A DNA stretch of 63,899 nt, filler included, from Folioceros fuciformis (Eukaryota), in assembly GCA_049999805.1 (NCBI GenBank). It is 8 parts of 8 records of this genome, joined end to end, with 100 filler letters (N's around TTAATTAATTAA, not from the genome) between each part and the next. Parts side by side here need not be neighbours in the genome. Positions count along the whole stretch, not along the records: positions 50,258 to 59,409 come from JBNGIO010003188.1; 7 more parts are not named here. One strand, 5' to 3'. The translations under genes were made by a program, and so were the position numbers. The notes beneath the pieces were generated by a model that searched no databases, was not told the DNA's origin, and was given only the letters and a program-made list of their open reading frames with translations. Shown piece by piece: positions 10,308 through 63,899 of the stretch. How positions within the stretch are numbered: the stretch's first letter is position 1; the number at the start of each line of letters is the position of its first letter.

Positions 10308-10407
10308 NNNNNNNNNNNNNNNNNNNNNNNNNNNNNNNNNNNNNNNNNNNNTTAATTAATTAANNNNNNNNNNNNNNNNNNNNNNNNNNNNNNNNNNNNN
10401 NNNNNNN
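10308..10407. other. Artificial contig-joining spacer (also 20415-20514, 31949-32048, 40334-40433, 50158-50257, 59410-59509, 62097-62196)
   Basis: Identical 44N-TTAATTAATTAA-44N blocks; the 12-mer places stop codons in all six frames. Confidence 0.97.
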
Positions 10408-32630: not shown

Positions 32631-35304
32631 TTATCTTGCGACATGCCCCTCAACCATGTGCCCAGCAGAAGACGCAGAAGACGTTACAGGTGCATCCACA
32701 AATTTATGGTACGTGCTCTCCAATTTTGAGTTCAATTCTTGCAGCGTTGCATACACCTGCTCACTTTGCTTGTGCCTCCGGTCTCCCACCACGAAAGTAT
32801 GCATCTCATTCTCATGTTCAATCCAACTTTGGCCAGGATGCTTAGAAGCACCCGCTCTTTGTCGCAACTGTTCCATTTCTCCTGCAAGTTCCCACATATC
32901 CTCCTGAGCATAGATGCTTGCCATCAGTACGTACGGTGCAGCCTCCTTTGGCTGCAGGCGCACTGCACGGTCGAAAGCACGCTGTCCAACGCCAACATTG
33001 CCATACTTCCGACAGGCTCCAAGCAAGGACATCCACATTGAGTAGTCGGGCTGCAGTGGCATCCTAAGAAGCAAAGCCTCTGCCTTGCTCAGGAGCCCGG
33101 CACGCCCAACCAGGTCGACAACACTTGAATAGTGATCAGTTCCGGCGGGGATGCCATAATCTTCGGTCATGGATTCAAAATACTGCAGACCACTGTGAAC
33201 CATGCCGGCATGATTGCAGACGGAGAGCAGTAGAAGAAACGCAACTCCGTCTGGCTGCATGCCTGCTTTGCAAAATTCGTCAAAGCAGCGCACACTTTCT
33301 TCGTATTCCCCCTGCTGTGCGTAGCCAGCAAGCAGCGCATTCCACGCCACCATGTCCGGCTGGACGACTGTGTGGAACACCTTCCGGGCATTCAACATGC
33401 TGCCACACTTGCTGTAGGCATGGATAAGACTCGTTGCCACTGGAAGACTCTGCTCGTATCCGGAGTCCATGATACTCCTGTGGATTTGAGAGCACATGTT
33501 CAGGGCACCGGTGAAGCTGCACGCTTTCAGAACGGACAAGTACGTAGTCTTGTTAGGCCTCACCCCTTCCGCCTGCATCTGGGCATAAAGCTGTAGAGCA
33601 GTCTCTCCCCGTTCGTCAGCAGCATAAGCTGTTAGCATGGAGTTCCATACGACCACATCATGCCTGGACGCTTTGCAAAACGCAAGCTCCGAGTCCAAAA
33701 TGCTCCCACACTTAGCATACATACCCACCAGAGTGCTGGCCACAAATGGGTTGGACTCGTAACCCATTCGAGCTGCATCAGCATGTATCGCTTGCCCCAT
33801 CTTCAAAGACTTTGCTTTCAAGACTTGTCCATCGACAAGAACACTGTCCTCCTTGTCTGCAAGGCTGCCACAGCCCTGAAGTACGCTGACGAATGTCCGA
33901 TCGTTTGGGCAGACACCCAGGGCCTGCATCTGGGTATAGAGTTGCACCGCCTTGTCTCCTTGCTCCTGCTGAGCATATCCTGCAAGCATTGAATTCCACA
34001 AAACTACATCTCTTGTCGACAGCCTGTCAAAAATGGCTTGCGCAGTCTGAATGCCCCCACACTTGGCGTACATGGTCACAAGTCCGCTGCCCACAAACAG
34101 GTCAGTTTCATAGCCTCCACTGACCACCGCCGCATGCACTGCCTTTCCCCTTCCCAGGGACTCTAGTTTGACGGCTTGGCCATCTACCAGGACACTCACT
34201 TCCTTGTCTGCGAGGCTGGAACAGGCTTGCAGCAGGCTGGAATAGGTGTGCGCATTAGGACAGACACACTGCTGCTGCATCTGGGCATAGACCCGCAGAG
34301 CCTCCTCTCCTTTATCCTGCTGGGCATATCCGCCAATCATGGCGGTCCATGACACCACGTCGTGCTCGGGCAGACAGTCAAACACCCGCTGTGCGTCGAC
34401 CATGCTCCCACATCTGGCATACATGTCCACCAGTGCAGTGCCCACAAAAAGCTCAGAATCACATCCCTGAAGCACAACTCGTGCATGAATCCGCCTGCCC
34501 TTCTCCAGGTCTCCTACGCTGGCACAAGCTTTCAGTAAAGTGACAAAGGTGTATCGGTCCGGCTGCACACCTCCCTCCTGCATCTGTTCGTACAGCTGCA
34601 GTGCTTGCTTCCCTCTTCCAGCCTTGCAGTACCCCGACATCAGAGCAGTCCAAGAGAATGCAGTCCGTTGGGGAAGTCTCTGAAACACCTGCACGGCATC
34701 CGCAAGCCCCCCACACTTGATCAGCGTACTGACAAGCGTCTCTCCGAGGAACGGATCGGAATCCATGCCATTTCTGACCATATGAGCATGAACTTTAGTG
34801 GCCTCGGCCAAGGCCCGCTGGCGGACACAAGCCTGCAGAATGTGCCAGTATATGCGCTTAGAAGGCACACTGCCCTCTAGATCAATGCTTTGCAAAACTT
34901 CCATAGCCTTATCCAGACGACCCTCATCGCACACGATTTTTAATTCACACGCCCCTCCAGAGATGCCGGGCACCCTGCCAGACGATTCCTCAACAACCCC
35001 AAAGCTGTAGCTGATCCAACAACATGGCTGTGCGCAAGCAAATACACATTTCAAACGAAGAAATCAAACCAGACCGAAACGGAGTTCGTCAGTCAGACCT
35101 GATACTGCCACTGCTGCTCTTCGACCCAACCGGTCTGGTTAGCTGCTTCTGCAACTGCAAAGGGGAGGGAGAAGCCGAATCCTTGGAATCCAATTCCTTG
35201 CTGTGATGACCCTGCTTAAGGGACTGGAGGCGCCCGGAAGAGAAGGACACAGGATGGAGAGGGATGTTTTGTGCATGGACAGCACATGTGTTAGGTGAAG
35301 GCAT
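32631..35304 (-). CDS. PLS-class PPR protein, E1-E2-E+ type without DYW (organellar RNA-editing specificity factor)
   Basis: Open frame 35054-32631 with P-L-S triplets, P2-L2-S2, E1/E2 and PG box KHPGQSWIE...HTFVVGD. Tentative Ser-rich first exon 35304-35099 spliced to 35010 or 35004. Confidence 0.93.
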
Positions 35305-40333: not shown

Positions 40334-40433
40334 NNNNNNNNNNNNNNNNNNNNNNNNNNNNNNNNNNNNNNNNNNNNTTAATTAATTAANNNNNNNNNNN
40401 NNNNNNNNNNNNNNNNNNNNNNNNNNNNNNNNN

Positions 40434-43414: not shown

Positions 43415-44292
43415 GGTTCACCTAGGTCTTGGGCTGCTATGAGTATTTGAGCCAACATGGCATTCATATTTGCATTCGGCCGTATGTGCCCTTCCATGGC
43501 AAACAGCACTTGACTCCATTTCAAGGGAGAGCTTGTATGGTGTCTCGCTGACCTCCTAGGCATAGCAGGCTGACCAGGTTCAAGCTGTGTTGGCACATTG
43601 GTTTCAGCTTCACCCTCACTTGCATTGGCCTCAAATGTATCACCAGGATGAATGTCAACTTGTGGTGGTGGGTTGAGGCCTGGAGCTGAGGTATGGCTTG
43701 AGGCTTGTGGTGGAGTTACTTGTGGCTGACTTGCACGTGGGATGATTTGCTCAAGTTCAGAGTCACTATCGCTTTGGAGTTCAGTAACTTGAGGGTCAGA
43801 CATTACATCCTGTGGGCCCCCCTCTCTAGCACAAGCCGCAACCAACAAACTATTCTCATCAAAAATGACAACACGGGTATGAGTGACATGGCCGGACCTA
43901 GGGTCATAAACCTTATACCCTTTGATACCCTCAGTGTATCCAATAAAGGTCATAGCACGGGCTTGATAATCTAGCTTCCTCCGTTGGGTCTTTGGGATGT
44001 GCATGTACACACGGCTGCCAAAATTTTTTAGATGTGAGATGGATGGTTTACGACCAGTCCACCGCTCATATGGGGTAGCACCTATGAAGGAGGAAGTGGG
44101 AAAACGGTTTTGCAGATATGTGGCAGTTTAAACTGCATCAGCCCAAAATGGCTTGGATAAACCGGATTGATAAAGCATGGCCTTGGTTGCTTCTTGGAAG
44201 TATCTGTTCTGCACCTCTGCCAATGGATTTTGGCTGGATGTGTGTGGGGAGGTCAGCTAGCGGGCAATACCATTGCTCATACGTAGCGGAAT
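43415..44292 (-). mobile_element. Copia integrase C-terminal fragment
   Basis: SQNPLAEVQNR, FWADAV, TPYERWTGRKP, FIGYTEGIKGYKVYDP. Confidence 0.88.
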
Positions 44293-47200
44293 TGAATTAT
44301 GCGTGTAAATTACATTGAGCAATGTGCTTTTTGTTCACGGACTTGTGTACCGGCATGAACGTCGGTGTTCACGAGACTCAGAAGGACTAAAGCAGTTATG
44401 ACTGTTTATATCTTAATATCTAATATATCTAAATATGCTAATTACCCAAACGTGCCCTAAATGCCAGGGCTGCTAATAGCTGGCACTTTCATTCTCCCAC
44501 TCAGCCCTGAGCATAACCTTAACTTAGACTTGTTTGTGTCGGCGCGTTTGGCGGCATGACGGTCTCCCTTGAAATCTTTGACACTGTGACTACGCTTACT
44601 CTGGTGATTGCGTTCTTCATCATCAGGGTAACATTCCACCACGATAAATTGCTGCGTCGCCTTCGGCATCTCCGTAAGCTAGTGAGCGAGGAGGAGATCA
44701 TTCTCAAAATTGAGAGAGCTCCACTGTGAGTTGTGCCGTGTTTGGGGACTGCCAGTAAACCCAAATATCACAAGCATTCCAGGTTGTCCAGAGTTCTCTA
44801 TGCTGCTTGACAAAAGCTACCATCGACCAGCATGGCAATCTCATATTGACGTATGAGCCTTGGGAGAATCGGCTTCAAACATAGCTGGAGATAGCTCGTT
44901 CTTCATTCCAACTTGGCTACTTTGGGTTCTTGCACCCTTCCTCCACAGTAAGATCTCGTAACCCTAGCTTAGCCAAGAGCATGAAATGTCTATCCTTTGG
45001 TAGCGCTTTGGTCAGGAGATCAGCAATGTTATCTCCAGTGCTGACAAATTTCAGCTTCACTTGGTTTGTCTGTATGAGATGTCTAACGAAATGTTGTGCC
45101 ACCTCTATATGCCGCGTACGGGAGTGGAAGCGAGTGTTGCTTGCCATGGCGATTGTGGACTGGCTATCCGAGCACAACATTGTCGCTTTTGTCTGCGCCT
45201 GCCCTATGTCGGCCAGAGTAGTGCAGAAATGACCTCTTTTCCAGCATGAGAAAGGGCCCCGTATTCTGTCTCAGCTGATGATAAACATATCGTTGGAAGC
45301 AACGTGCAGCTCCAGGTAATCGTTGTCCCATTTATCGTAAACACATGCAGCGATGCTTCTTCTTTGATCTAGGTCGGCCACCAAATCAGCATCAGACCAG
45401 CCAACAAGGTCCAACTTGCCCGTTCCATTTCCCTTGTACGTCTGGCCAAGACTTCTGGTATGTAGCAAGTATCGAAAAATTCGCTTAACAGCATTCCAGT
45501 GATTTCTACCTGGATTTTGTGAATACTTAGCCACCTCTTGCGTGGCCTTGGATATGTCAGGGCGAGTCCATATATTTAAATATATCAAACACCCCATTGC
45601 CTGCTTATACGGGACATTTTGCATTTCAGATTACTCTGATTCACTTTCTGGTTCATCCTGCTTTGACAGCTTTATGCTGATGTTGAGAGGAGTGCTCAAG
45701 GGTTTAGCATCGGATAGATTGAACCTTTGAATAATCTCACTAACATACTTTGTTTGGTGCAGGGTGATGGTGCTAGACTGCCGATTTCTGTCCACCTGAA
45801 CACCCAAGCAGAATGTTAACTCACCCAGAAGGTTCATCTTAAACCTCTCAATCAAGGATGTTTTAACCATATCCATAAGGGATTTTGTTGTAGCTGCGAT
45901 AACCAAATCGTCCACGTATAAGGCAAGTAGCACCAGACCTTTACTGTTTTGCAAGACATACAAGTTTGGGTCATTGTGGCTGTGCTTGAAACCAATAGAT
46001 AATAGAAACTCATCTATGTTTTCAAACCAGGCCTTTGGGGATTGCTTCAGACCATAAAGTGTCTTCAACAGCCGACAAACCTTCTCCGGAAAATCTGGGT
46101 CCTCGAACCCTTCAGGCTAACAAATATACATTGTTTCCTTCAGGTCGCCATTCAAGAAGGCTGTGCACACATCAAGATGTTCTAAAAACATATCGAGCTC
46201 AGCCGTAAGTGCAATCATGAATCTTATAGACTGGTTTCGGACAACAGGTGCGAATAACTCTGACTCAATATAGTCAACCCCCGCAATCTGCTTGAATCCA
46301 TGCACCACAAATCTTGCCTTGTATCTAGCGATACTGCCATCTGGGCCAAGTTTTCTCTTGAATACCCACTTACCCTCTATGGGTTTTCTCCCTGGAGGAA
46401 GATCTTCAAGTGACCATGTTTTGTTTTCAATTAGGGAGTCATATTCGTCCTGAACTGCTTTACACCACTTGGTTGATTCAGGTCCCTTCATGGCTTCGGC
46501 ATATGTGTGAGGTTCAGGTAGCATATGAGGCGGGATGTCAGCCTGTGCAACCATAGCCTCATGAGAATCGTCACTTGAGTTATTTAACTCTATCAGTATT
46601 TGGCTACTGGTTCTGTTAGTTCTTAAGTCAGGTGGAGAATATGGCGGCACAAGCCAATCTTCTCGAGCAGGCCCTGCTCTTTGACTTCTTCTTAAAGGGG
46701 GTGGCGACGAAGGAGGTGACAGTATTTCCTCCTCATCAACCTCATTATTTATCGTTTGTTGAGTTTGAGCTCCCACTGTCTCTGGCATGCTTGCATCAGT
46801 TTCCGTTGAAGTTTCTGCTTGCACAGGTGTCCCTGACTGAGGTACTGACTGATGAGGTTGTATAGAACAAGTTGAGACCGGAATGTCCCACAAGTCAGTG
46901 GTTTCGGTGGTTTTTGTGGCATCAACCTGATTAGATACATCATAAGGAACATCTCCCCCTGGCTCAGCAGGGTCACCTGTGCCGTGACGAGGAATCAGGG
47001 ACAGTGCGGCTTCATGTATAATGACGCTGCGGGCATAAGAAGCCCTTCATGTTGTGGGGTTGAACAGCTTATAAGCTCGAAGGTCGTCAGCATAACCGAC
47101 CAGGAGCAATTTTTCTGAACGGGGATCCATTTTTCTGCGCTTGGCGTCTGAAATGTAAGAATGGGCAGGTGATCCAAAGATGCGCAGATGTGAAATGGAA

Positions 47201-47321
47201 GGTTTATACCCAGTCCAGACCTCGTATGGCGTCTTTCCACCAAGTTTGTTGAAGGCAACCGATTCAGAATATATGTTGCAGTATCCACAGCTTCAGCCCA
47301 GTAATCAATGGATAAACCTGC
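44293..47321 (-). mobile_element. Copia 3' two-thirds nested in the previous element
   Basis: YWAEAV, KWVFKRK, HLDVCTAFLNG, LYVDD, GWSDAD, HSRTRHIE; PPT GAGTGGGAGAA; 3' LTR 44293-44491. Confidence 0.9.
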
Positions 47322-48609
47322 TATGGACTCCACATGCTGAATAGGTGCTTGGAAAATGGTAGGATTTCTCTTTTTGGGAATCTCTAAGTGATCCTTGTGG
47401 TGAAATGGTTAAAAGATTAGGTTAGATTAGTAGCTAGATTAATGGTGAGGCGAGACGCGTCTTTGAAGGGTTGCTGGAATGATCTGAGAGAAGGGATGGA
47501 ATGATTTGAGAGAGGAGGGAGAGTGTTGAGAGGCACTGACCCTTTTGGTAGTCTTGAGAGGTTGGTCAATTTTGGTAAGGGCACCCAGTGGTGTCCATGG
47601 GACACAACCCCTATTAGGTCAGAACTAGGTTTGGGTCAAAGTTAGGGTTAGGTCAGAATTAGGGGCGGCTTAGGTCAGAAAGAGATTGCTGGGTGGTTGA
47701 CTGAGGCTAACCCTATTACATAGAGATGGAGGTTTGGGCCAAGGTAGTATAAGAGGCTAGACCTGCCATTGAGGAGGGGGCTGTCTACGGTGCGATTTCC
47801 CTGGACCTTGGGTGCAGAACTCCTGGCTTAGGGCGCTGAGCTAGTTGAGACTAAACCAAGGTCCTGATTTCCCTTGCCACTAGGGAAACGTGGAGGATCC
47901 CAAGACTGCCAAGATTCGTGTGGCCGGATCCGCAATGGCTGACCACCTTGCATGCTGGCTGAGGTGAGGTTGCACGGCCGTGAGCCAAGGAGGCTACCCA
48001 GCCCTAGGCCTCGCCTTTGCCTTGAAGGCTGCAAGAGAGAAGGCTGTTGTGTTCCAAATTGCAGGAGAGAAGGGTTGAGTTGCAGATTTTGGAAGTGGAA
48101 GTGTAGTGAGAAGTTGAGCTGAAGTAAGGGCTGGAGGGTGAAGTGAAGTGCTGAAGTGAAGGACTGAAATGCTGGGGTGAAGTGCTAAAGTGGTGGAATG
48201 AAGTGTTGAAGCTGGAGTGAGGAGCTAGCTGAAGTTGAGGTTCTCGTTCAACTGCGGAGGTAGCTAGCACTAGGTGCTAAGAGTTGGAGGCCAGACTTGG
48301 GGCTGGAGCCTCCTCTCAGCACTGAAGTGATTGGTACTTGGAGCTGGAAGCGAGGGCTGAAGACAATGCTGGAGTTCTCATTTTGTTGAGGCTGGGATTG
48401 GTGTTGCGGTAGGAGTCGAAGACAGGACCAAGAATTCTGACCTATTGCTGTAGCACTTGGTATATGCTAATAGATAGGGTGAGATTAGGGAGATGTAGGT
48501 AACCTTGACATTAGTTCACTCCCTTGGGAGCGAATCATAAGACTGCAACGATAATAAGGGGAAGTGTGGCCCCTTGATGGTTCTTGGGTGTGCAAGAAAT
48601 CACTCCACA
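47322..48609 (-). repeat. Family Z solo-LTR-like repeat (1288 bp)
   Basis: Minus strand reads TGTGGAG...GAGTCCATA; one end matches 40434-40590 and the other matches the end of family W. Confidence 0.7.
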
Positions 48610-50157
48610 TGTTCCTTTACCTTCATGGAGTATTTTGGATTCAGCTTGTACTGTGGAATGCAGACGGGAACAGCGCCTGGCTCCAAGTCAATCTTGTGCT
48701 CCCCCATTCCTCAGCCTTCTCCAGTCCTGGCACACTCGGATCTTCCCTTGCTGTTTCTTGGGCACCACCACGATTGGGGCCACCCAATCTGAGTTCACAA
48801 TTGGAAAAATCACATCTGCCTTCAAGTATTGCTCCAGCTGTTCCTTTACCTTCATGGAGTATTTTGGATTCAGCTTGTATTGTGGAATTCGAACGGGAAC
48901 AGCGCCTGGCTCCAAGTCAATCTTGTGCTCCCCCCACTCTTTGGGAATTCCCTTCATGTCTGTCACCTCAAAGGCAAACACATCGATAAACTCAGCCAGG
49001 AGTTGCTTCATTCCCCCTTCCAATTTGGCATCCAGCTGTTTGGAAAACTTCAGCACCTTGCCCGGCAACACCTCTACATCCTTAATTTCATCAGCCTGCA
49101 CCCAATCACGCTGCACGGGTGCAAAGCTGACTCCAAACCCTTCTTCCGGCTCTCGGGGATCTTCCTCCCTCATTCCCCATTCCCTGAATAGGTCTTCGGA
49201 GGTGAATCTAGTGACCTCTGTATCCTCACCAGCAAGCCCTTTAGACCTTGGGTCACAGCCCCCTTCCCTCATCTCATCTTCCTTCACACCCCTCTTGGCA
49301 TGGGAGGCTTTTTCCTGGCCCTTCCCTTCAGCAACTCCAGCAGCCTGTCCTTCCACATTTGCTGCTTCAGCCCCTACCATGTTGCAGTCCAAGGTGATCC
49401 CAAAACACTCGACCCGGTTCAGGGTATAAGGAATATCCCTTCGGTAGTCCTCCTCTTCATCTGTCCATGATATGTGGGAAAAAGGGAATTTATCTTCCCC
49501 TTCCCCCTCCTCCAAATCAGTTGTGTCCCCCACGGACGTGTACCCCTCCGTGTCCGTTGGGGTCTGACCGAGGTAGACATCCCGGCTCCAGCTCAAACAA
49601 ATCCTACCCTCCTTTGTCTTGGGGTTCCATTCAGGTGGTTTGAAAGCCACCTCCTTCCTTCCCCATGACAGCCTGCACCTCGATCCATACAACCAAGTCC
49701 TGCCCAGCAAGATGTCGTAGCCTGGTGCCTTGTGTTGAATGACCACAAAATCGAGAAGGTAGGGAATGGTCCCTATGGTTGTGGCTACCCCTCTCAGCTC
49801 TCCCACTGGCTGCATTCTAGACATATCGGCCAACCTCAAGACCTTGGTTGTGTGCTCGATCTCCAATCCAAGTTTCTTGGCGGTATCCTCCGTCATAATA
49901 TTTACCCCTGAACCTGTATCCAGTGGCACCCTCTTAATCACAGCTTGCAATTTCCACCTGCAGTTCAGCCGGTCCTTGGTCCACCATGGACACCATGTTG
50001 ACCATGGGAGCTGACAACCTTGTCCCTGATTTAGGTAGCCTCTTCCTTCTCTTGGGTTGGGCCTCCTGCAATGCCTTCCGGACCTGCTGTCGATATTCAG
50101 GGTTATCCTTCAGGAGCTGACCAAAGGTAACAGCAAATTGCTGGTCCATGATGGCTC
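48610..50157 (-). mobile_element. Ty3/Gypsy pol fragment (aspartic protease and RT N-terminus)
   Basis: LDTGSGVNIM, ILLGRTWL, HKIDLEPGAVPV, SDWVAPIVVVPKK...IRVCQDWR; protease directly followed by RT. Confidence 0.92.
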
Positions 50158-50257
50158 NNNNNNNNNNNNNNNNNNNNNNNNNNNNNNNNNNNNNNNNNNN
50201 NTTAATTAATTAANNNNNNNNNNNNNNNNNNNNNNNNNNNNNNNNNNNNNNNNNNNN

Positions 50258-53200
50258 TGCATCATCCCACATCTGCCATACACAGTCTGCTTTTTCTGAG
50301 TACAGAAAGGTTCCAAAAGGTCAAGTCGTTCTTCTTGGTGACGATCGTGGCCTACCAATTGTTGGAATAGGCAAGGTCCCTGTCCTTGCGGTAAGTCGAA
50401 GGGTTGAAACCCTACTAGAAGTTCTGCACGTACCAGCTTTGGTCAAAAATCTGGTGTCAGTCTACTTGCTAGATACTCAGCACAAGCTTAGCACCATGTT
50501 CACTAATGGCCAGTGCCATGTAGTTGACCAGAAAAACAAAGCTGAGATAGTCACAATAGGAACTCCAGTGCATAACCTGTACAAGCTAGACATCAAGTAT
50601 GAACGTTGCAGACCAATGGCAAACCTGACACAATCACAGCAGGATGAGCGTGACGCCAAGCTCTGGCATGCCCGGCTGGGTCACACAAACTTTGACAAGC
50701 TGAATATGATAGTAAAAAATAGCTCACTTTACTGTGAAATTTTTTTAATGAAGCATGCTGAGAAGACCTTCTGTGAGGCGTGTGTGTTTGGTAAACACCA
50801 CCGAGCTCCCTATAAAGACAGTAACCCTACTCGTGCTACCAAGCTTTTGGAGCTTGTACACTCAGACCTTTGTGGACCCATGTCCACAACTTCACTTGGT
50901 GGAGCAATGTACTTTCTATCTTTCATAGATGACTGGAGCTGATACACTGTTGTGTATCTTATCAAGCAGAAGAGCCAAACCCTGGAATGCTTCATGGAGT
51001 TTGTGACTTTTGCACAAAGGCAAACAGGAGAATTGCTGAGAACCTTGAAGAGTGATAACGGAGGCGAGTACATCTCGGATGCCTTTGTTAGCTTTTGCAA
51101 GGGACAGGGCATAGCCAGACAGCTGACTACCCCATATACATCTGCACAGAATCCAATAGCAGAAATCTCTAATCGGCACACACAAGAATCTGCAAAAGCA
51201 ATGCTCCAGCAAGCACGTCTTCCACGTGGGTACTGGGCTGAAGCAGTCAGTACAGCAGTGTACATCAGAAACAGACTTCCTACCATTGTGTTCACAGGAG
51301 CAACTCCGTATGAGCGCTGGACAACCCACAAGCCACGAATAAATCACCTCAGGATTTTCGGTGCGCCAGCATACGCACACTTGGCTGAGGACCAAAGAGT
51401 CAAGCTTGACTATGAGGCGCGCAAGTACATTTTTGTGGGTTATACGGAAGGAATTAAGGGGTACAAATTGTTGGATCCAAACACCAGAAACATTACCCAT
51501 TGCCGAAGTGTGGTATTTGATGAGCTTTCACTTCTCACACCGCCACTTGAGTCCTCGAACCTGCAACCTGAACAGGAAGCATCCACAAGTGAGATCTCTG
51601 AAGGGGAAACGAGTGAGGTATCCTATCAGCATACAAGCACCACAACCCACACTGCTCATGTGCCAGCAGTCCCTGTCGACCAGACAGCAAGTGTTTTTCC
51701 GGATGACGAGGATGGGGAAACCTTGAATGACACTCAAGCTGCAGCAGCTGATATTGATACAAATGAAGGGGAGACAGAAGACAGCCACACTTGCAATCAG
51801 GATGATGCTACCATCACAGAACCTGAACAAGGTCAAACCTCAGAGATTGAGGTGGAATCAACTCCAGAAGCTGAACTGCCAAGACAGAGCAGTAGGAGGC
51901 ACACATCTTCGCCAGCCGAGTGGGTAACTCCACCACTCACCTACAGCTCGTTCCTTGTCCAGGATGATAGCACACCTGATAGCTTGGGCGAGCCCCTGTC
52001 ATACAAGGAGGCTATCAGTGGACCAGAAGCAGCAATATGGTCAGTGGCAATTAATTCAGAGTATCAGTCGCTGGTGGACAATGGCACATGGGAACTGGTG
52101 GACCTACCTCCTGGCAGAAAACCAGTAACCTGCAAGTGGGTTTTTAAGAAAAAGCTTGCAGCTGACGGAAGCATAGCACGCTTCAAGGCACATCTTGTGG
52201 CAAGAGGGTATAGTCAGGTTGAAGGCCTGGACTATAAAGAAACCTTCTCTCCCGTAGTTAGGGCCACCTCAGTCTGCACACTTTTTGCTATAGCAGCACA
52301 GAGGGACTACGCCATGGAGCACATGGATGTGAAAACTGCTTTCTTGAATGGAACTCTGGAAGAAACAATTTTCATGAGTCAGCCAGAAGGTTTCGTGGAC
52401 CCTAAGCAACCAGGAAAAGTGTGTAGACTAATCAAGACCATCTATGGACTAAAACAGTCCCCACGAGCTTGGTACAAATGCATTGATACATACCTCAAGC
52501 ATTCAGGATTTTTGCAGTCAGAATCTGATTCAAATGTGTACAAGCTGGAGGAGAAAAATGGAGAGGTCTTCCTGGCTCTCTATGTGGACGACGCAGTCCT
52601 TATTGCCAGCAACCCATCAATAATGGCTAAGGTCAAAACCATACTTACCTCTGAGTTCTCTATGACTGACTTGGGTAAACTCACATGGTTCCTTGGTATA
52701 GAGATCCACCAAAATATGGCAACGCACACTGTGTTCATTCACCAGGCTCAATACATCAGCCAAGTTTTAGCAAGGTATAGAATGGTGGATAGCAAACCTG
52801 CTGCAACACCCATGGCTGTTGGGGAAAAACTGAGTACTGAACAGTCACCTAAAACAGAAGCAGAGAGACAGCAGATGGAAAAGGTTCCATATCGGTCAGC
52901 AGTATGCTCACTGATTTACTGCAGGAACTGGACACGACCTGATTTGTCGTATGCAGTGGGAGTGACCTCTCAATTTTTAACCTGCTATGGAACAGCACAT
53001 TGGACTGTTGTACAGAGGGTAATGAGGTATCTGAAAGGCACTCTAAGACTTGGCCTGCTGTATAAGCAGAGGCCCAAGAATCTCCTGCTGACATGTTTCT
53101 GTGACGCGGGCTGGGCAGCTGATGCCGACACTCGCAGGTCAATATCTGCCAATTGCCTGCTGCTGGGAGCACATGAGTATGATGCTACAGTCATTTCTTG

Positions 53201-54397
53201 GTATTCCAAGAAACAGCAGGTTGTGGCCCTATCATCTACTGAAGCAGAGTACGCTGCTACAGCTACTGCTGCTCAAGACATAGTTTATGCAAGGGAGCTG
53301 CTCTCATCACTAGGTGAAACTCAGAGTGCACCTACCCTGCTCTTGTGTGACAATCAGTCAGCAATAGCATTAGCGCAAAACCATGTTATGCATGCAAGAA
53401 CTAAGCATATCGAGGTGAAACACCATTTTATTAGACAAGTGATTAGTAACGGGCAGGCAACCTTGCAATATGTACCAACCAGTGACAATGTATCAGACCT
53501 GCTCACCAAAGCCCTAGCAAAGGACAAGCATGACAAGTTTTGCAGGGCTTTGGGTCTGGTAGAAGGAAAATAGTGTCAAAAAGTCACTCCCACAAGGTCA
53601 GCACATGCACAATCTTCATGCAGATCTTCAGACCTCTAGGACTAGCAGCCCTTGAAGCGGAGAGTTGGCAACACAGTGGAGCACCTGCACCAGGGTTCTG
53701 CGCAAGGCTGAAGTGGGTCACCACAGAGAATGGATCAAAAACACAGTAGTGAGATCGAATCTCACAGAGCCTGTGGGTCTCACCATAGCAAATGATGAGC
53801 TGCCCTTCTTCTGTGAAATCAGACCTAGCGCACAAGAATCTGTCCATGCAATTTGGAAGCATTGTGAATGGCGCATCTGGTGCTAGGCGAAGAAAAACCC
53901 TGCAGCCGCCTTCCAACGAGCATGCGCTGTCTCCAGCTCAGCTTCAGTGCTGTGCTTAGCTTCATGAGCTGTCTCCAGCTCAGCTTCAGTGCTGTGCTCA
54001 GCTTCATGTGCTGTCTCCAGATCAGCACGCCAGCCAGCAACAACACGCACGTGATCAAAACCTGGTCCTTGGCGAAAGAGGAAGCAAACCCTAGCAGGTA
54101 GTCGGAGCAATGAAATTAAATGAAGATCTGGCTAAGTGGGAGTAGTGAAAAAGCATATATAGTTAGCATTTAAGTAGCCAGCCTTATTTAATTATTTATT
54201 TATTCATTTAGGGCAACACACCTAGATACCAAATGCTTCGGCGTTTCATAGGGGTCGTGACCTAACTAACCGTCACCGTCGTTCACACGCCGTGAACCGA
54301 CGCACATGTCTTGGCTTAAGGCCGTTTATGGCCACACAATAATTTAATTTTATCTCTTTATGCAATCTTGCAACCGATCCTAGTCTGTAATTTTCCA
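50258..54397 (+). mobile_element. Young Copia element, 5' truncated by gap; pol nearly intact
   Basis: Frame open from ~50260 to 53573 except TGA at 50940; LWHARLGH, HSDLCGP, SDNGGEY, LYVDD, RNase H; PPT AAGTGGGAGTAG; 3' LTR 54146-54397. Confidence 0.95.
53927..54026. repeat. 42-bp tandem repeat in Copia 3' region
   Basis: CTGTCTCCAGCTCAGCTTCAGTGCTGTGCTYAGCTTCATGWG, ~2.4 copies. Confidence 0.85.
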
Positions 54398-54667
54398 TGA
54401 TACCCTATACAGGTGTCCCCTTTTCTGTAGGTAGCTTGCCCTTCACAACTATATTTCTTATTTAGGTACTACCTCTCACATAGATATCCACCCTACATGG
54501 GTATACTTCCCTATAGGTAGCCATCCCAAAGAAGGTAACTTCTTTACAATACTACCCCTTATTATTGCTACTCATCTAACCTACCAAACCAAGACCAAAC
54601 AAAATTGAAAATGTTATTAGCCGCTCCCTACCTACTGCAGGTACTTGCCAAAAACCCGCATTCCACA
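54398..54667 (-). repeat. Family Y terminus (target of the Copia insertion)
   Basis: Reverse complement of 16175-16440. Confidence 0.85.
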
Positions 54668-54696
54668 GGGGCCTCACCTGCGAATCATTTCATGGA

Positions 54697-55350
54697 ATGG
54701 TAGAGGCTTTGGGGGGTTGGTCAAAGACGGCCTCGAAGTGTAGGAGACTGAAGCACTTGTTAGAAGAGGAGGTCACTTGGGGTATTGTTTGCCTCCAGGA
54801 GCATGAACTTTCTACAGAGCATATCCAGAACGTGAAGAAGCTATTCCTTCCAGGTAGAACAGAATGGGTGGCAGCCAAAGCAGAAGATGAAAGCAATGGG
54901 GAGCATTCGACTCAACGAGTATCAACAACCCGGGGAGGCGTGTCCATAACTATTCACCTAGAACACACTCACAATATCTTGGAGACGGGTGAAGATGAAG
55001 GTGGAAGGTTTGTGTGGCTGGTGTTGCAAACACCTCAAGGCCCACTCGGCATATGTAATATCTATGCCCCCAATGCTGCCACTGACAGGAGTAATCTCTG
55101 GTGCAGACGGGGGGAACAACTGGATGAGCAGATCCTGTGGATGTTGGCTGGGGTTTTCAACTTTGTTGAAAGACGGGAAGATATCCGAGGGGAGAGGTAT
55201 GATCCTGTCTGACCATCACGCAATTAGCTTGCACTTGAGGCTTGCGCCGGACTCGGGGCGGCAAAGGAGGCATATGCAAAACTTTTGGATGAACACGTCC
55301 TTGCTCAAGGAAAAGGGGGTGTTCGAGGAGGTCAAAAACATATGGTAGGG
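54697..55350 (+). pseudogene. LINE (L1-type) APE endonuclease fragment
   Basis: IVCLQEH, GRFVWL, CNIYAPN, LAGVFN (GDFN-like), then shifted SDHHAI and FWMNTSLL. Confidence 0.85.
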
Positions 55351-55385
55351 AATAGAGCAGGGGGCAGAACCTGCTGTTTCATTGA

Positions 55386-55444
55386 GACTATAAAAATGCA
55401 GACTATAAAAATGCAGACTATAAAAATGCAGACTATAAAAATGC
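55386..55444. repeat. 15-bp tandem repeat x4
   Basis: GACTATAAAAATGCA repeated. Confidence 0.9.
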
Positions 55445-55746
55445 CTGCGACGTAGGCTAATCAGGAGCAGGTCAGAATCAAAACGCCACCGCAAAACGGC
55501 ATAAAGCTACAAAACAGTAAGTAGGTCAGCCCTAGAAAAACCAAACGTGCCCTAACTTCATTTTTTTGGATATGCCATGTTGCGTGCACCTGACAGGTGT
55601 ATACAATCAAAAGCAATGTGCCTGCGTGTACATGACCACCAACCGTCAAGTGTGCACAAAGCGCCTGTTGGTGGTTGACTGCAAACAATGCCTAGAGTAG
55701 TGAGCTTTGTCCACCTCCGGCTGTAGCACACCACACACCAATCTGA

Positions 55747-56337
55747 TCAAGCTGCCTCAAAAGCATTGCGCTCACGAGTTGGAGGCAACAACGCTGGTAA
55801 GTATAGGGCAACTTGTAGATCCATCGCCGAGTGTCCTTGTTCTGGAACTCTGAAAAAATGGGCAATTCTTTGAATAGTTACAATTTGCACTCTAGTAGCC
55901 TCAGATTGCAAATGCAGGTCCTCCGTGAGAGCAGCAATCATTTGAATTGCTGAGTCGATCTGAAGAGTGAGGTTTGATCTTGTTCTGAATAGCAGAACCT
56001 AAGTGTCTCGAAGGCAATCATCAATTGCTGAAAAAGAATCTTCCAAGATCAAATCCTCATCTTCATCAGATGGGAAAACTCTTGGTGGTCGTCTTGCTAA
56101 CCCTCGTCTTGAGCTTGGACGTTGATTTGTGTGATAGGTGTAGAGATGCGGATCCTGTTGTTCACCACGGGATGTCTCCAATTTTTGAGACACAATGGAG
56201 AAGAAAACCGTGCGAGGATTTCGTCTAGAGATTCTCCTTGAAGGATCCTCAAGGCATCTGTTCGTAGAAGAGGGCAGTTCTGATCTTAGTTCCCCTACGC
56301 ACGAAACATGATACCTATTTCTAGACCTACGTGTCAT
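55747..56337 (-). pseudogene. Unknown ~196-codon ORF with one internal stop
   Basis: ORFs 55999-56337 and 55747-55941 are in the same frame, separated by a single TAG. Confidence 0.35.
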
Positions 56338-56564
56338 CCCTGCTGCTCAAGTGAGACCGACATAGATTTTTCCTAATGCGATTCCACCATAGCTAGGCTC
56401 ACATAGTGCTATTCAGTGAGAGTTTCAACATAGCTCAGCGTGTATGAGCAAATGCACACTAAACTACGTTGAAAGACACCTTATCTCATCTAGAATACAG
56501 CATCTATTCTCGTAGATAGAGTAGCCTAATTCTATATGAAGATGAGCATCATGTATCAAAGGGC

Positions 56565-58962
56565 CTAGACAAAACCTAGCCATGTCCACATAATACACTC
56601 CTCTACAGACCACACCCACAGTTGGTCCTCCAACCTCTCGCCTCTCCGTCTACAATACAGACACACGGCAATCAAAGCACGATGTAGCCTGTACATATCA
56701 TGAAGGTAATTTGTGCCCTGCATCCCAACCTTGAATGCCTTGTGCCTTGCTTCCTTCAACTCCTACACACATGCACATCCACGGAAACTCATTATCAGCA
56801 CCTCCCGCATAGGATCCTATGACCCTATCTCCTTCAACATTAGTTTTACCTTGGTGAGTAGTTCCACCCTTGACAACGAAGGCGCCTCTGGTGCATTGTT
56901 CCAGGAAAATTGCGTTCCTCGGATGCTGTACTCCCCATCCTCGTCGGCATCCACACCATACACCTCTTGAGGCCCCACCAACCCTGCCAATCTCTCGTCT
57001 TCTTGGAACACCTCTATAGGAACATGGCCTGGTATGTGGTCATTTGCAGAGCTCTTTCTTCGCACCCTATGAAGATTATGAAGATTCCACACTTGCACGA
57101 CAGTCGCAAGCTCTTGCCTCATTATGGGCATGAATGCCGCCTATAGCAAGTGGATATGCCAGTGGTTTGTTATGTCTAGCTCCAAACTTTGTTGTAGGTC
57201 TTGCATATACCCTTTGTACAAAAAAGCCCATTTTTCCTTCAAAAACCTCCAAAAGTGTTCTATTCTCTACACATCAAGCACCCACACACTTGCAATCAGC
57301 TTTACTATTGTCCCCAATCCATTTGCTCCCCACTCTACTTTCTACCTCCTCCATAACCACATCCAATCCCTTTACATTCATCCTCACCTGGCTGTGCACC
57401 GAAGGCCCTCTTATAAAGTTGCTCCCATTCTCTCGTGGCCTTGCCCGCATGAAATCAGCCTCCACCAAATTGTGCTCTGCAGCATAGTCTGCCCTTATTC
57501 GTTGTGGGTGGCTGAACCTTTGTACAGCCCCAATGTACACATTGTAGATTGTTTATCCCAACACATTGATTGGCGACTGGCCAATTTGGTGACTTAGTGC
57601 ATTAACCAACCGAGAAGCAGTAGCCCCTTTGTGATTGACCTGCCATGTCTCTAGGTCACTGCACCCCTCGTCCCCGGCAAACTGTGTGCCTCCAAGGTCT
57701 GGCGACGACCCCCCGGATGCATCATGGTGAAGAACTCGCCCCGATGGCATTTCTCCCACTAATCGCATGCTCTGGCCATTTGTTTCGGTGCAGTCAACCC
57801 TAGCCTTGTTTGCATTTAGTTCGTTTATAATGGTGTCATCCTCTAGCACACCGGCCTTCACCCGATACATATGAATCATGTGCTCAATCATCTATGATTG
57901 CGGGTCCCAGATGTATAGCAGCACGTTTTGTAATTGGTGTGCGCTTTCAAACGTAGTGCTGCCGAGTGGGAACATGAGTGGGTTGTCCGATAGCATGTCT
58001 GTCAGAGAGTTACAAGCCAAGAGTCGCTGATGCCGCTCAATGAAGCACCCCGGTGCCAAGTTGCTCCATGGTAAACTATATGAATGAGCTACAACCTCCA
58101 TTATCTCCGCTGCTATGGTTCCTTGCACGAACCCAAATCCATCATACTTCGCACCCACCGACATGGAGAAGGGCATGCGCAACTCAACTGCAGTGCCATC
58201 TGTAGATGTGATCCATGTGACAAGCATACGGCCCCTTCCATCGGGACTTTCCACATGTATTACATTGTATAGTCTACCAAGGGGGACTATGATCTTAAGC
58301 TTCTTTAGATGCACATGATCATGGGAGCCAGCGTTGCCTAGTCTCTTCCCATTCCCTAGCATCTTGTGACGTCTGCCTAAACTTGCGCCAACAACCATGT
58401 GATTGCGTTGTAGAGTGATGGGAATGTTCCCAACGGCTGCCCGCACCCAGTCGGGCGCGGGCGGCACTTGCCACATTGGGGTCTCCACTGCACTTCATTG
58501 AGGGAGAGGCAAGACGGGGCCTCTAGGGGTGAAAGCCGTGTTGGGGACCCAAGGGCTGACCTCAGACCATGCTTGGAAGCCTGCACACGCGGCCGGGGCC
58601 TCGCAAGCCACCGACTCGTCGCTCGTGCTACAAACCATGATAGGCATAGAGGAACTTGGAGTTGAAGGGACGAGAGAACTTGTTGACAATCCGGGGGCAT
58701 CGCCATCGTCCATCCTGTCACCTATCTGCCAATCCTGGAGGATTGCATCATCGTTGTCTCGCACGAGAGTCGATCTCCTCTGGTGCTCCAATCTCTGTTC
58801 AGCATTCATATTGTTGCATTGCGTTGAAGTAGGGCCCCAGGAAGCAGGCCGTCGTTGAGAACGTTTGTGGACGCAGGGTTGTGACAATGGATGCGAAGTG
58901 CTGGTATCTAGGCTTGGTGTTGCGGAAAACCAGCCTATCTGCGCGAGCTTGGTACACATCAT
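56565..58962 (-). pseudogene. Intron-containing integrase-core (DDE) transposase pseudogene with a long unknown N-terminal region
   Basis: One frame 58962-57388 (3 stops); GT-AG intron 57387-57267 joins GPSVHSQ|RIEHFW; intron 56849-56763 joins LLTK|ELKE; motifs HPQRIRADYAAEH and VWNLH. Confidence 0.75.
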
Positions 58963-59974
58963 GGCCGATGAACGGTGTCGAGTGATACATAGTTTAGGTA
59001 CATTATTGTTGATTACCGAAATGGTGAATTGTGGCCAAATGAAGTGTGGTCATAAACAAAGGGTAAACATAAATAATTTCGATCCCTGGAATTTACAAGA
59101 AAACAAACCTTAAGGAGGTGTCTACTTGGTTGCTTAAAAGTGAGCACTTTTTAAGTAGCTGTAAAAAATATTTTCTTCTAATAAATATATATCTTATTTA
59201 AGAGTGACTCTTAAATATGTATAGGTATGGAGTAAAAGACTATCTTCAACCCATACCTATACATACATCTATAGTGATCGGAAATAATCATAAGTCTGGT
59301 TTTCAGGTGTTGTTCCTTTTGTGATGATGCCTCATCAAAGGAAAAACAGTTGGAAAAGTTTTTTTATATTTCATTTATTATTAAATTATTTTTATATTTT
59401 ACTTAATATNNNNNNNNNNNNNNNNNNNNNNNNNNNNNNNNNNNNNNNNNNNNTTAATTAATTAANNNNNNNNNNNNNNNNNNNNNNNNNNNNNNNNNNN
59501 NNNNNNNNNATGCTTTATATCTCTTTTCTATGAATTAAGACACTTAGATCCTCTTTTTTCTTCTAATATGCATTAAGTTTACATTGCTTTTTTTTTTACT
59601 ACCTTAAAAAGTCTAAGTTAAGGTGTACAAGAATCTAAGTATATCAAGTAAATATCATTTAAATTAGACTCATGTCATTTGTCTCCTTCTTAGCTTCAAG
59701 ACAATAGTATAGTGAACTCACTTCAAAGAAAATGAGCATTGAGCAATTGTATTGTATGTAAATGCAAGAAGGATAACATCTTAATTGGAGTATGGTGGCA
59801 AAGCTAGAAACAAGGATAAGAATAATGTTGCGCGAGTTCAACATTCTTTGATCTTACATTTTGATATTAGAGTAGGGCTCAACATGGCTAGTTCACCAGT
59901 GCTTGTTATTTGGAAAATGATGGAGGGTGCTCAGTGAAAATTGGATATAAGGATGTAGCATGTTTTCAAAACCA

Positions 59975-60475
59975 CTTGCTTGCAGTTTAGGAAACTTTGT
60001 GCGATTTAGCTTTCCCATTTGACATCCTGGACACAAATGTGTTGCAGTAATCTCCTTTAAATCTAATCCTGTCACCATGTCATGAGTCATCATCTGCTTG
60101 AGTTTGTCCACTCCGATGTGGCCTGAACGCCTATGCCATAAATCGTCAGACTCTATGTGGTTGTGTGAACTAGCCAGGGTTTGTACAAGCTTGCTTTCTC
60201 ATTGAAGCACAAAGTTTGTACAGATTTCCCACACGAACACCACGAGCAACCACGTGTGACGGCTCAGGCTGTACAGGTTGAATGCGATAGCCTGTGGAGT
60301 TGAAGACTATTTCATGACCGCATCTGCAATCTGCGTAACAAAAAGAAGATTCCTCGCGAGATTAGGTACATGATGCACATTCTCAATACATGCGAGGTTA
60401 CCGCCCTGCAACTGAATGTGTAAGACTCCTTTTCCCCTCGATGTCATGTGACGTATTGTCACCGAGAAGAAGTGG
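59975..60475 (-). mobile_element. Copia fragment (protease to integrase zinc finger)
   Basis: DLWHRRSGHIGVDKL...CPGCQMGK. Confidence 0.8.
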
Positions 60476-60494
60476 ATGCTATAGCTAGAATATA

Positions 60495-60632
60495 GGGTGG
60501 AACAGTGGAGCGGTGTGGCCTAGGGCGGAGTGGTGGGGCAGTATGGTGTGGTGCACTACGGTGGAGCGGTGTGGCCTAGGGCGGAACGGTGGATCAGTAT
60601 GGTGCGGTGCACTACGGTGGAAGGGTGTGGCC
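60495..60632. repeat. ~56-bp tandem repeat
   Basis: GGTGGAGCGGTGTGGCCTAGGGCGGA...CAGTATGGTGYGGTGCACTAC, ~2.4 copies. Confidence 0.8.
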
Positions 60633-60806
60633 GTATACGCAGGAGTGTTGTAGAGCATGGCCCAAGATAGCCAGAGGGGAATGAGCGATGTGATGGTATA
60701 TTAGAGGAGAAATATAAAAATAGTATGAGTGGTGTACGAGTGGTGTAGAATTGCTTGTAGGAATGGCATTCTAGATGAAAATGGTATACCGATATGGTGG
60801 AGCAAG

Positions 60807-61379
60807 TGTGGAGGCAAAATCCCGGGCACTAATTGCCGACGGGTTCCACCTTTAGTGGCCACACTTATCCCACTGTCGTTGAGACATTGGGTTTCGTTCC
60901 CACGAAGGAGCGATGGGGTTCCTTGCTGCTGTGGATGGAGGGTCGGACTCAATTGACTCGATGATGGATTCGAGGGCTCCCCTCCAGCTCCGATCAGGCA
61001 TAGGACAAGCCTCGTTGTCCAGCAGTCAGCTGCACCTCTCTTGGTGCCCACAAACTCACTCCAGTCACTACAACGACCCTAACCTCTCAGATCTGTGACT
61101 TCCCTCACTCACTTCACTCGCTCTCTCACTCCAGCACCAACACCAGCAACTAACCATGACACCACTACCTTCTACACTTCCCTATTGACTCCTCCTACCC
61201 GGCAAGAGTCACTAGACTAACCTCAAAGAAGAGAAAGAAGGGAACACACTCTCCCCCCACACCCCCTCGGATATCTCCTCCCCACGACCTTACCAGACGC
61301 AATGAAACATGGCCGGCCTACAACACTTGTCCAAACAGGGAACAAGAGTGGACAGGTCGAGAGAAAGACACATCCTTTA
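60807..61379 (+). repeat. Family X LTR-like repeat (partial), interrupted by the next element
   Basis: Colinear with 42140-42691. Confidence 0.85.
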
Positions 61380-62096
61380 TGTTAGGGTTTTGTTACCTTA
61401 ATTAGTTATAGCCCCTTTCACTCGTTATTTATCCCGTGGACTGTTTTATCAGCCATAGATGCCTTTTCATTTTTAGGGTTTCTAGGGATATATAAATAGG
61501 CTCTTAATGGAGAGATAATATATAACAAAACATCTTTTGGAGAATATACTTTGTTTTTTATGCTTGAATAATGTACATACATTACACATATTAATTAAAC
61601 TGCATTATTATTTTTGATATGGTATCAGAGCACGTCAAAATTAGATAATGCAAAATCAGGGCAGTCATGTAAACTTCTATTATGATAATTATAGGAAGAT
61701 CAATAATGATCTTCATCAAGGTCGAAAGATGGCCACAAAATTACATGGTCAAAAGCAGATACATGACTGCCCTATACGAAGACAACACTTATCTTCTGAT
61801 TTTAATCTAGATTTCTATGAATATCTAGAGAAAGAAAAATGTCTTGGTAAGAAGACACAAAATCATCTTAGAAGACAAAAGACTAAAGTGTTCACAGAAC
61901 ATGTTCAGCCTGATGTATTCGTATCGAGGTTGAATCGGCGAGACAGTTCCTGTGAATCTGCAAGTTTACATAAGGCAATTCATTATCAACAGAGAGATTT
62001 TAAATCTGCCCTTCAGAATTTAACAAACAAAATTTCGCAGATAAAACAGTCGCAATCTCAAATTATTTCCCAACAGTCAACCACACAAGATCAATT
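61380..62096 (+). mobile_element. 5' end of an LTR retrotransposon: LTR 61380-61619, PBS 61620-61631, non-gag ORF from 61648
   Basis: TGTTAG start, TATAAATA inside the LTR, exact TGGTATCAGAGC, ORF open to the gap. Confidence 0.8.
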
Positions 62097-62196
62097 NNNN
62101 NNNNNNNNNNNNNNNNNNNNNNNNNNNNNNNNNNNNNNNNTTAATTAATTAANNNNNNNNNNNNNNNNNNNNNNNNNNNNNNNNNNNNNNNNNNNN

Positions 62197-63899
62197 CCCT
62201 CCTGGACCAGACCCCCATGACTGCATGCTACTAGAAGGCAAGTGAAAGTAGCATCGTCAGGCTGAACACCGGCAGCTAACATCTCCTCAAAACAAGCTAG
62301 CGCCTTGCAACCTTCATCACAAGCACCATATCCAGCGATCATGGCATTCCATGTCACCACATCTTTAGTGACCATCCTGTCAAAAACCTGGCGTGCATCT
62401 TCCACCTCACCACATTTTGCATACATGTCCACCAGGCAGTTTCCCACCAGTATATTATCCAGCACACCTCTGTTGACAATCTGTGAGTGCAGCTCCCTGC
62501 CCTTCTGCAAGGCACCAGTGCTTCCACACGCCTTCAGAATGCACGCAAAAGTAACATCATCGGCCAAAACGAGGCCTGCCTCCTCCATTTGTCCATACAC
62601 AACAAGTGCCTGTTGGCCGAGTCCTTGCTGTGCATACCCAGCGATCATGGCATTCCAAGTCACCACATCCTTCGAGGCCATGCCGTCGAAAACCTGGCGG
62701 GCACCTTCCAGCTCACCACATTTTGCATACATGTCCACCAGGCAGTTTCCCACCACTATATTACCCAGCAGTTTTCTCTTGACAATCTGTGAGTGAAGCT
62801 CCCTGCCCTTCTGCAATGAACCAGTGCTTCCACACGCCTTCAGAATGCAAGCAAAAGTAACATCATCAGCCAAAACGAGGCCTGCCTCATCCATCTGTCC
62901 ATACACAACAAGCGCCTCTTGCCCGAGCCCTTGCTGAGCATACCCAGCGATCAGGGCCGTCCATGTCACCACATCCTTCGTGCCCATGCTGTCAAAAACC
63001 TGGCGTGCATCTTCCACCTCACCGCATTTTGCATACATGTCCACCAGGCAGTTTCCCACCACTATATCATCCAGCAGTTCTCTCTTGACAATCTGTGAGT
63101 GGAGCTCCCTGCCCTTCTGCAAGGCACCAGTGCTTGCACACGCCTTCAGAAGGCACGCAAAAGTAACACCGTCAGCAAAAACGAGGCCCGCCTCCTCCAT
63201 TTGTGCATATACAACAAGGGCCTCTTGGCCGAGTCCTTGCTGGGCATACCCAGCGATCAGGGCCGTCCATGTCACCACATCCTTCGTGTCCATGCTGTCA
63301 AAAACCTGTCGTGCATATTCCAGCTCACCACATTTTGCATACATGTCCACCAGGCAGTTTCCCACCAGTACATCATCCAGCACACCTCTGTGGACAATCT
63401 GTGAGTGAAGCTCCCTGCCCTTCTGCAAGGCACCAGTGCTTGCACACGCCTTCAAAAGGCACGCAAAAGTAACACGGTTAGCCACCACGAGGCCCGCCTC
63501 CTCCATTTGCCCATACACAACAAGTGCCTCTTGGCCGAGTCCTTGCTGTGCATACCCAGCGATCAGGGAATTCCATGTCACCACATCCTTCGTGTTCATG
63601 CTATCAAAAACCTGGCGTGCATCTTTCATTCGCCCACATTTTGCATACATGTCCACCAAGGAGTTGTTAACAAACAAGTCAGTACGGAAGCCACTGCGCA
63701 ACACGTCGCGGTGCACTGTTCTGCCAGATTCTAAGTCGGCAGCAAATGCACAAGCTTGAACGGCGGCTACAAAAACATAACCATCCGCCTTCACTTCTGA
63801 CCTACGCATTTCATGGTACAGTTGTATGGCCTCCTTCGGCTTCCCGTGCTTGGCATGTGCAGAGATTATGGAAAACCACATGAAGACATCCGGTTTCCC
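62197..63899 (-). CDS. PLS-class PPR protein, partial at both ends
   Basis: Uninterrupted frame of P-L-S triplets (VVTW..., VTFAC..., LVDMYAKCG) ending in P2-L2 (LVACSHGGLVQE) at the gap. Confidence 0.93.

Follow-up and report, generated by a model that had tools for sequence, protein, structure and literature searches.

What is the interrupted, stop-bearing coding stretch on the minus strand between positions 57606 and 56565 of a 63,899-nt stretch of DNA from the Folioceros fuciformis assembly GCA_049999805.1 (this whole stretch is called the window), and is it native to plants or of foreign origin? A sequence-only reading had described it as a spliced integrase-core DDE (Asp-Asp-Glu) transposase of a fungal or animal type, from a DNA-transposon lineage overlooked in seed-free plants and either ancient or horizontally acquired. 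The answer reached here is a plainer one. The stretch is very probably a no longer functional transposase gene from a DNA transposon of the GingerRoot/IS3EU superfamily, placed in a plant (bryophyte-type) clade. The lineage is known, and this locus is a real but ordinary decayed member in the plant clade of the superfamily.

Concerning the gene itself, the minus-strand fragment 57606-56565 corresponds to the C-terminal 60% of a DDE transposase with an integrase core (Pfam rva_4, PF24764), and the peptides quoted earlier are present in the sequence where they had been placed. The parts of the gene, all on the minus strand, are as follows.

57607-59049, minus strand: near-open upstream frame of 481 codons, in frame with exon 1, with the stops TAG 57894-57892 and TGA 58497-58495.
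57388-57606, minus strand: exon with the second catalytic Asp (Pfam rva_4 positions 50-103; tblastn with P0194 and P0033), homologous to residues ~182-255 of relatives, with an in-frame TAA at 57555-57553.
57267-57387, minus strand: intron 1, 121 bp, phase 0, CAG/GTGAGG...TGTGTAG/AG, between Q and RIE.
56850-57266, minus strand: exon with the catalytic Glu and the WN.H motif (Pfam rva_4 positions 104-176), with an in-frame TAG at 57143-57141.
56763-56849, minus strand: putative intron 2, 87 bp, AAG/GTAAAA...GTGTAG/G, with two stops inside.
56565-56762, minus strand: C-terminal exon, ending with TAG 56567-56565, collinear with the C-terminal block of P0194 (to residue 445) and with P0058.

Intron 1, the first of the two introns that had been proposed, is well supported. 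The 55-residue piece encoded by 57552-57388 matches PF24764 ('Integrase core domain') at positions 50-103 (25.3 bits, E 1.4e-5), the piece 57266-56850, if its TAG is read as X, does so at positions 104-176 (28.4 bits, E 1.6e-6), and the two matches abut exactly, profile position 103 being followed by 104, once 57387-57267 is removed. The Pfam comparison that had been suggested as a check of the spliced protein thus returned rva_4 for both pieces. In addition, the homologues are contiguous across the gap, the intron falling between their residues 67/68, 95/96, and 255/256, respectively, in the following tblastn alignments.

57552-57388, minus strand: P0033 residues 14-67, 55% identity, E 2.5e-14.
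57266-56982, minus strand: P0033 residues 68-159.
57570-57388, minus strand: P0051 (Calypogeia) residues 37-95.
57266-56895, minus strand: P0051 (Calypogeia) residues 96-221.
57606-57388, minus strand: P0194 residues 182-255, 44% identity, E 9e-11.
57266-56634, minus strand: P0194 residues 256-445, E 1e-11.

Judged by these alignments, the collinear match to the homologues, of which P0194 (476 aa) is the closest full-length relative, can be regarded as far beyond chance. The second Asp codon (GAC, 57489-57487) is part of RIRADYAAEHN, and the catalytic Glu codon (GAA, 57260-57258) is part of QRIEHFW and follows 36 residues after the second Asp when intron 1 is spliced. The feature had been taken to start at 57552. 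The homology there is real but begins further upstream, at about 57606 (~54 bp), and crosses the in-frame TAA 57555-57553. Intron 2 is plausible only. Its removal raises the local alignment score against eight of eight homologues, which represent only two sequence families, and the downstream exon reaches a score of 51 against P0058, which 1 of 500 shuffles also reached; the other four of the five shuffle targets were not significant, and none of the profiles supported this intron. Hidden Markov models (HMMs) built from plant-type and from broader relatives match the three open reading frame (ORF) pieces in order (32-85, 86-125, and 130-185 of the plant HMM). As had been proposed, the locus contains a eukaryotic gene for an integrase-core DDE transposase of the IS3EU kind, with rva_4 matches in both pieces and at least one spliceosomal-type intron.

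The supposed fungal or animal affinity did not hold. A full HMMER (phmmer) search with a 139-residue piece against 1.84 billion representative proteins gave 23 matches at E<1e-3, the top one with 46 bits and 36% identity, and none at 1e-10, and a word-index protein search with exon 1 returned two candidates, neither of which scored. Three of the matches could be named by cluster look-up and belong to the moss Ceratodon purpureus, the liverwort Calypogeia fissa, and the basidiomycete Arthromyces matolae, the moss and liverwort proteins being annotated 'integrase core domain'. All 17 proteins from a search with P0051 carry PF24764, including five Calypogeia paralogues and proteins of teleost fishes and Daphnia. 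In a metagenome scan with P0194, only distant relatives came up (30-36% identity), and the close family had no genomic copy there. For the tree (35 rows, 241 columns, IQ-TREE, LG+C20), rows were chosen from the protein-search matches, with short fragments and near-identical members of clusters excluded. In it, the fragment branches as sister (89/89) of a clade (96/87) that contains the Calypogeia and Ceratodon proteins together with unnamed sequences, and both are placed inside a clade of 14 rows (97/94), apart from the clade of fish, Daphnia, and fungal sequences (98/96). The nearest named relatives are therefore Calypogeia fissa and Ceratodon purpureus, and the fragment stands beside a bryophyte clade.

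The lineage had also been called overlooked, but it has been published. According to the available text of PMC6839031, GingerRoot was described in 2019 (Cerbin et al.) from Selaginella lepidophylla, has 6-bp target site duplications (TSDs), terminal inverted repeats (TIRs) of 100-150 bp, and TA..TA termini, is restricted among plants to bryophytes and lycophytes (18 species of Bryopsida and three of Lycopodiopsida), and occurs outside plants in fish, corals and other cnidarians, and further animals. The available text of Kojima and Bao (2023, PMC10045372) unites GingerRoot and the IS3EU of Repbase, listed there since 2013, into one lineage, IS3EU/GingerRoot, with 99% bootstrap. The termini of IS3EU/GingerRoot are given as TA..TA and rarely as TG..CA in the accessible literature, and those of fungal IS3EU as TAYGG..CCRTA in the available text of PMC12730594. 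Among titles and abstracts, a literature search for IS3EU with fern or moss gave nothing on a seed-free plant genome; in the records returned for GingerRoot transposon there was nothing about a fern, and PF24764 led to nothing related.

The bridge from Pfam to this lineage is a metagenome contig (L001) that carries a distant rva_4 transposase within a 2.5-kb element at 2296-4814 with 39-nt inverted repeats TACGG...CCGTA. Because these ends match TAYGG..CCRTA, rva_4 can be linked to IS3EU, and together with the overlap of taxa this suggests that rva_4 corresponds to IS3EU/GingerRoot. The core homology found by way of rva_4 has tblastn E values of 1e-11 to 2.5e-14, and the fragment is located inside the family in the tree. 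The same metagenome contig has a 460-bp miniature pair with the same ends (2294-2755), internal or adjacent to the element.

Several points weigh against this assignment. Membership of the superfamily is judged by proxy, through Pfam rva_4 and proteins carrying it, and not by direct comparison with GingerRoot or Repbase IS3EU proteins. With 25.3 and 28.4 bits, each rva_4 piece is by itself at the gathering threshold (26), and L001 has no matching 6-bp flanks, the expected duplication not being seen. The nearest relatives are only 36-55% identical, and the branch of the fragment is 1.06 long, which makes its exact position in the tree uncertain. No HMM match to a first-Asp block (WH.D..DKL) or an N-terminal domain was obtained in six frames over the whole window, no inverted repeats of at least 25 nt were seen to flank the gene within 44000-63899, the only pairs there being artefacts of the linkers and one of 25 nt located elsewhere, and no TSD was found for this copy. 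The outer end of the element could fall off the contig, because the contig stops 1.86 kb upstream of the core. The DNA is present only in sequencing runs of the probable source sample, so that the assembly is not independently confirmed. Finally, simple truncation fails to explain the near-open upstream frame joined to the core, which could point to a chimeric or exapted gene.

The decay of the gene is evident from the two in-frame stops inside the homologous part, at 57555-57553 (TAA) and 57143-57141 (TAG), and from the incomplete catalytic triad. The second Asp and the Glu are present and the first Asp is not recognisable, as expected in a truncated or decayed copy. That the region of the first catalytic Asp is not visible had been noticed before and was borne out by six-frame HMM and shuffle tests. 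The N-terminal HMM scored -2.3 bits against the upstream frame, and 800 of the 888 scored shuffles were at least as high. Two upstream motifs, 'LHHD' and 'FAGD', were tried as a WH.D-like first Asp and were rejected, as they gave no six-frame HMM match and the pairwise shuffles were not significant. As far as its sequence tells, the copy is dead: it should not produce an active enzyme and, on present evidence, should not be mobilisable either.

The upstream frame has two stops compared to 23-24 in the other minus frames, none of 2000 shuffles had two or fewer, and 95 stop-free codons run across the junction with the homologous part. It is thus decayed coding sequence that is continuous with the core. 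The 481 codons have no homologue in Pfam (E up to 10), Atlas, or the PDB (E values above 1), and a single-sequence AlphaFold model of the region (mean predicted local distance difference test 31.9) was unusable.

Evidence from reads comes from the DNA runs X1 and X2 of the probable source sample. Both contain a 1578-nt contig that matches 56867-58444 with 0 differences, and in each run 34 contigs align at 80% or above, 15-18 of them being less than 90% alike (in X1, nine at 99% or above, two at 95-99%, eight at 90-95%, and 15 below 90%). One paralogue joins 58405-58197 to 57318-56867, with 878 bp skipped and 20 other letters in between, and diverged paralogous contigs also contain parts of the upstream frame. 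Across most of the gene, the summed depth amounts to two to six times the depth of the exact contig, and 57548-57963 is covered by the exact contig only. Because of the diverged paralogous contigs and the deletion derivative in the same runs, the unit, upstream frame included, can be considered an old repeat of low copy number. No RNA run carrying the stretch was found; run X4, which was guessed to be RNA, matches only 18-19 letters.

Two further observations were made in these data. The 60-bp piece 56305-56365 is all that several diverged contigs of the source runs match before they continue into common, different sequence on both sides; the loose ends are at 56305 and 56365, the depth is about 6x the single-copy level, and this suggests that part of a different and more abundant repeat lies immediately downstream of the gene. 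Nearly all differences between run X3, from the same sample, and 56300-59409 are G>A (222 places) or C>T (49 places). The run looks like a bisulfite-converted library and could serve to read the methylation state of the repeat.

The copy might belong to an undescribed, plant-specific sub-lineage of GingerRoot, defined by a conserved phase-0 intron before the Glu and represented here by a member in which an N-terminal region of ~480 residues, chimeric or exapted, has been fused in frame and replaces the usual DNA-binding and first-Asp part. This we regard as unlikely. If it were so and the host were a fern, hornwort, or seed plant, the range of GingerRoot would extend past the bryophytes and lycophytes, the limits given for it among plants in the available text of PMC6839031.

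Intron 1 itself seems to be conserved. P0002 (a Ceratodon cluster), P0009/P0059/P0060, the P0006/P0193/P0195 family, and P0004 all have a short hydrophobic start that ends with Q directly before RIE, as would be expected if the start had been called inside an intron ending in ...CAG. These intron-like starts were counted as six gene-model groups, in which P0009, P0059, and P0060 are three related Calypogeia models and not independent. In addition, P0196, which ends just after WHMD, and P0195, which starts with MSLQ-RIEHFW, share one 217-kb contig. Of the 11 distant relatives whose metagenome loci were fetched, ten span the site of intron 1, and all ten are uninterrupted. A phase-0 intron before the Glu therefore seems to be common to the moss and liverwort relatives and to this copy and to be absent from the distant metagenomic relatives. 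This pattern favours the view that the lineage has been inherited vertically in land plants for a long time over a recent transfer. 'Intron' occurs once in the main text of the GingerRoot paper (PMC6839031), for captured gene fragments, and no transposase intron is described in that part of it. Only this apparent conservation and the long, unexplained coding region that is in frame with a core without the first Asp go beyond the accounts in the available texts of PMC6839031, PMC10045372, and PMC12730594, and neither alters the understanding of these elements.

It is doubtful that the locus instead represents a chimeric or exapted gene family, in which the N-terminal region of ~480 residues was fused in frame to a core without the first Asp and remained open for a period under selection, in DNA binding or another host function, with this copy now being a pseudogene. 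The two stops in the 481 codons of 59049-57607, the frame running on into the homologous part, the paralogous contig that bears both parts, and the undetectable first-Asp region would fit such a history. However, four stops interrupt the frame in this copy, its paralogues have diverged and one has the 878-bp deletion, which resembles the decay of a repeat and not a conserved gene, no run with RNA of the stretch was found, and nothing shows a functional domain since the N-terminal region has neither a homologue nor a predicted fold. A decayed GingerRoot/IS3EU transposase gene in a low-copy repeat remains the preferred explanation.

The setting of the locus bears on whether it belongs to the plant at all. 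Eight separate contigs, about 2-11 kb in length, make up the window and are joined by seven identical linkers, each consisting of 44 N, TTAATTAATTAA, and 44 N. Because of this, features on opposite sides of a linker need not be neighbours in the genome. The positions of interest are these.

10308-10407, 20415-20514, 31949-32048, 40334-40433, 50158-50257, 59410-59509, and 62097-62196: linkers, identified by the N runs and the linker sequence.
50258-59409: contig carrying the transposase fragment, ~9.2 kb (JBNGIO010003188.1), bounded by linkers of this kind.
50259-53570, plus strand: Ty1/copia pol on the same contig.
32634-35063, minus strand, on a different contig: PLS-class pentatricopeptide repeat (PPR) gene with an E motif, intronless, 810 residues.

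The copia pol (RVT_2 with 253 bits, plus rve, gag_pre-integrase, and SH3_retrovirus) is a long open frame of 876 + 227 residues cut by the start of the contig. Its closest database relative is 64% identical, and the next matches have ~40% identity across mixed eukaryotes, which says nothing about the lineage of the host. It is located on the opposite strand, has its own rve, and is unrelated to the transposase fragment. As it provides the only reverse transcriptase and rve of the contig, the fragment itself is not a retroelement, in agreement with the earlier view. A copia-like ORF beyond 59510 sits past a linker and need not be a neighbour of the feature contig. The PPR gene has profile scores of 269.7 bits for PPR_2 and 37.7 bits for the E motif, and no DYW domain was reported for it; being of the RNA-editing-factor type typical of land plants, it marks the assembly as that of a land plant. 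The Rfam scan of the window gave 0 matches, and self-blastn revealed no second copy of the feature within it.

With contigs of only ~9 kb joined by linkers, a copia pol whose top named matches come from very mixed eukaryotes at ~40% identity, and DNA seen only in the source-sample runs, contamination from a fungal, animal, or epiphytic source could be suspected, as could a recent horizontal transfer. Both are highly improbable, because the fragment groups with bryophyte sequences and not with the fungal or animal clade, the diverged paralogues and the deletion derivative in the same runs, at similar depth, imply a long residence, and the PPR gene with its E motif on another contig of the window is a land-plant marker. 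No evidence was found for the horizontal acquisition that had been considered. It is scarcely credible that the fragment is an integrase of a long terminal repeat (LTR) retrotransposon or of the Ginger1, Ginger2, or Polinton type instead of IS3EU/GingerRoot, since, although the fold class is shared, the contig also bears a copia element, and Atlas lists rve clusters at lower scores (0.82-0.84), Pfam reports rva_4 alone and no rve for both pieces, the copia pol is on the opposite strand with its own rve, a regular expression for the HHCC pattern (H-x3-7-H-x20-40-C-x2-C) found nothing in the upstream translation, where the N-terminus is unrecognisable anyway and this test is weak, all close relatives carry PF24764, and a spliceosomal-type intron interrupts the core.

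The GingerRoot/IS3EU assignment is mostly of value for annotation: such stretches should be labelled as DNA/IS3EU-GingerRoot relics and not as novel genes or retroelement integrases. As described in the available texts of the papers, intact members encode a DDE transposase (D, D, 35-36 residues, E) with an RNase-H fold related to IS3/IS481, which binds the TIRs (TA..TA), excises the element, and inserts it with a 6-bp target duplication; this is drawn from those papers and not from the copy studied here. This copy has kept the second Asp, the Glu, the C-terminal WN.H region, and the phase-0 intron just before the Glu codon, and has no recognisable first Asp, DNA-binding N-terminus, open frame, or inverted repeats. 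The copy is one of a low-copy, diverged repeat family that includes the ~480 upstream codons in frame with the core.

Compared to the prokaryotic IS3/IS481 transposases and the retroviral and LTR integrases (rve, PF00665), the fragment shares the RNase-H-fold DDE core, in which ~35 residues separate the second Asp from the Glu. However, it matches rva_4 instead of rve, its gene contains spliceosomal-type introns, and it has neither the frameshifted two-ORF layout nor a zinc-binding HHCC domain. With IS3EU it shares the motif P.R.R.D..EN ... SVHNQRIE..W ... WN.H and the Pfam rva_4 core, and the ends of the distant rva_4 element L001 (TACGG..CCGTA) resemble the termini of fungal IS3EU (TAYGG..CCRTA, from the available text of PMC12730594). 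The fragment differs from IS3EU in being part of a plant clade in which D.AAEH replaces D.G.EN, and is separated in the tree from the clade of fungal (Arthromyces) and animal sequences. In contrast to GingerRoot, this copy shows none of the 100-150-bp TIRs, the TA..TA termini, the 6-bp TSD, and the first Asp, and has the unexplained in-frame region of ~480 codons upstream. Like GingerRoot, it is a DNA-transposon gene of the seed-free-plant type with a DDE core related to integrases, contains no HHCC or GPY motifs, is multi-copy with truncated and diverged copies, and has relatives in moss, liverwort, teleost fishes, and Daphnia that match the host list of PMC6839031.

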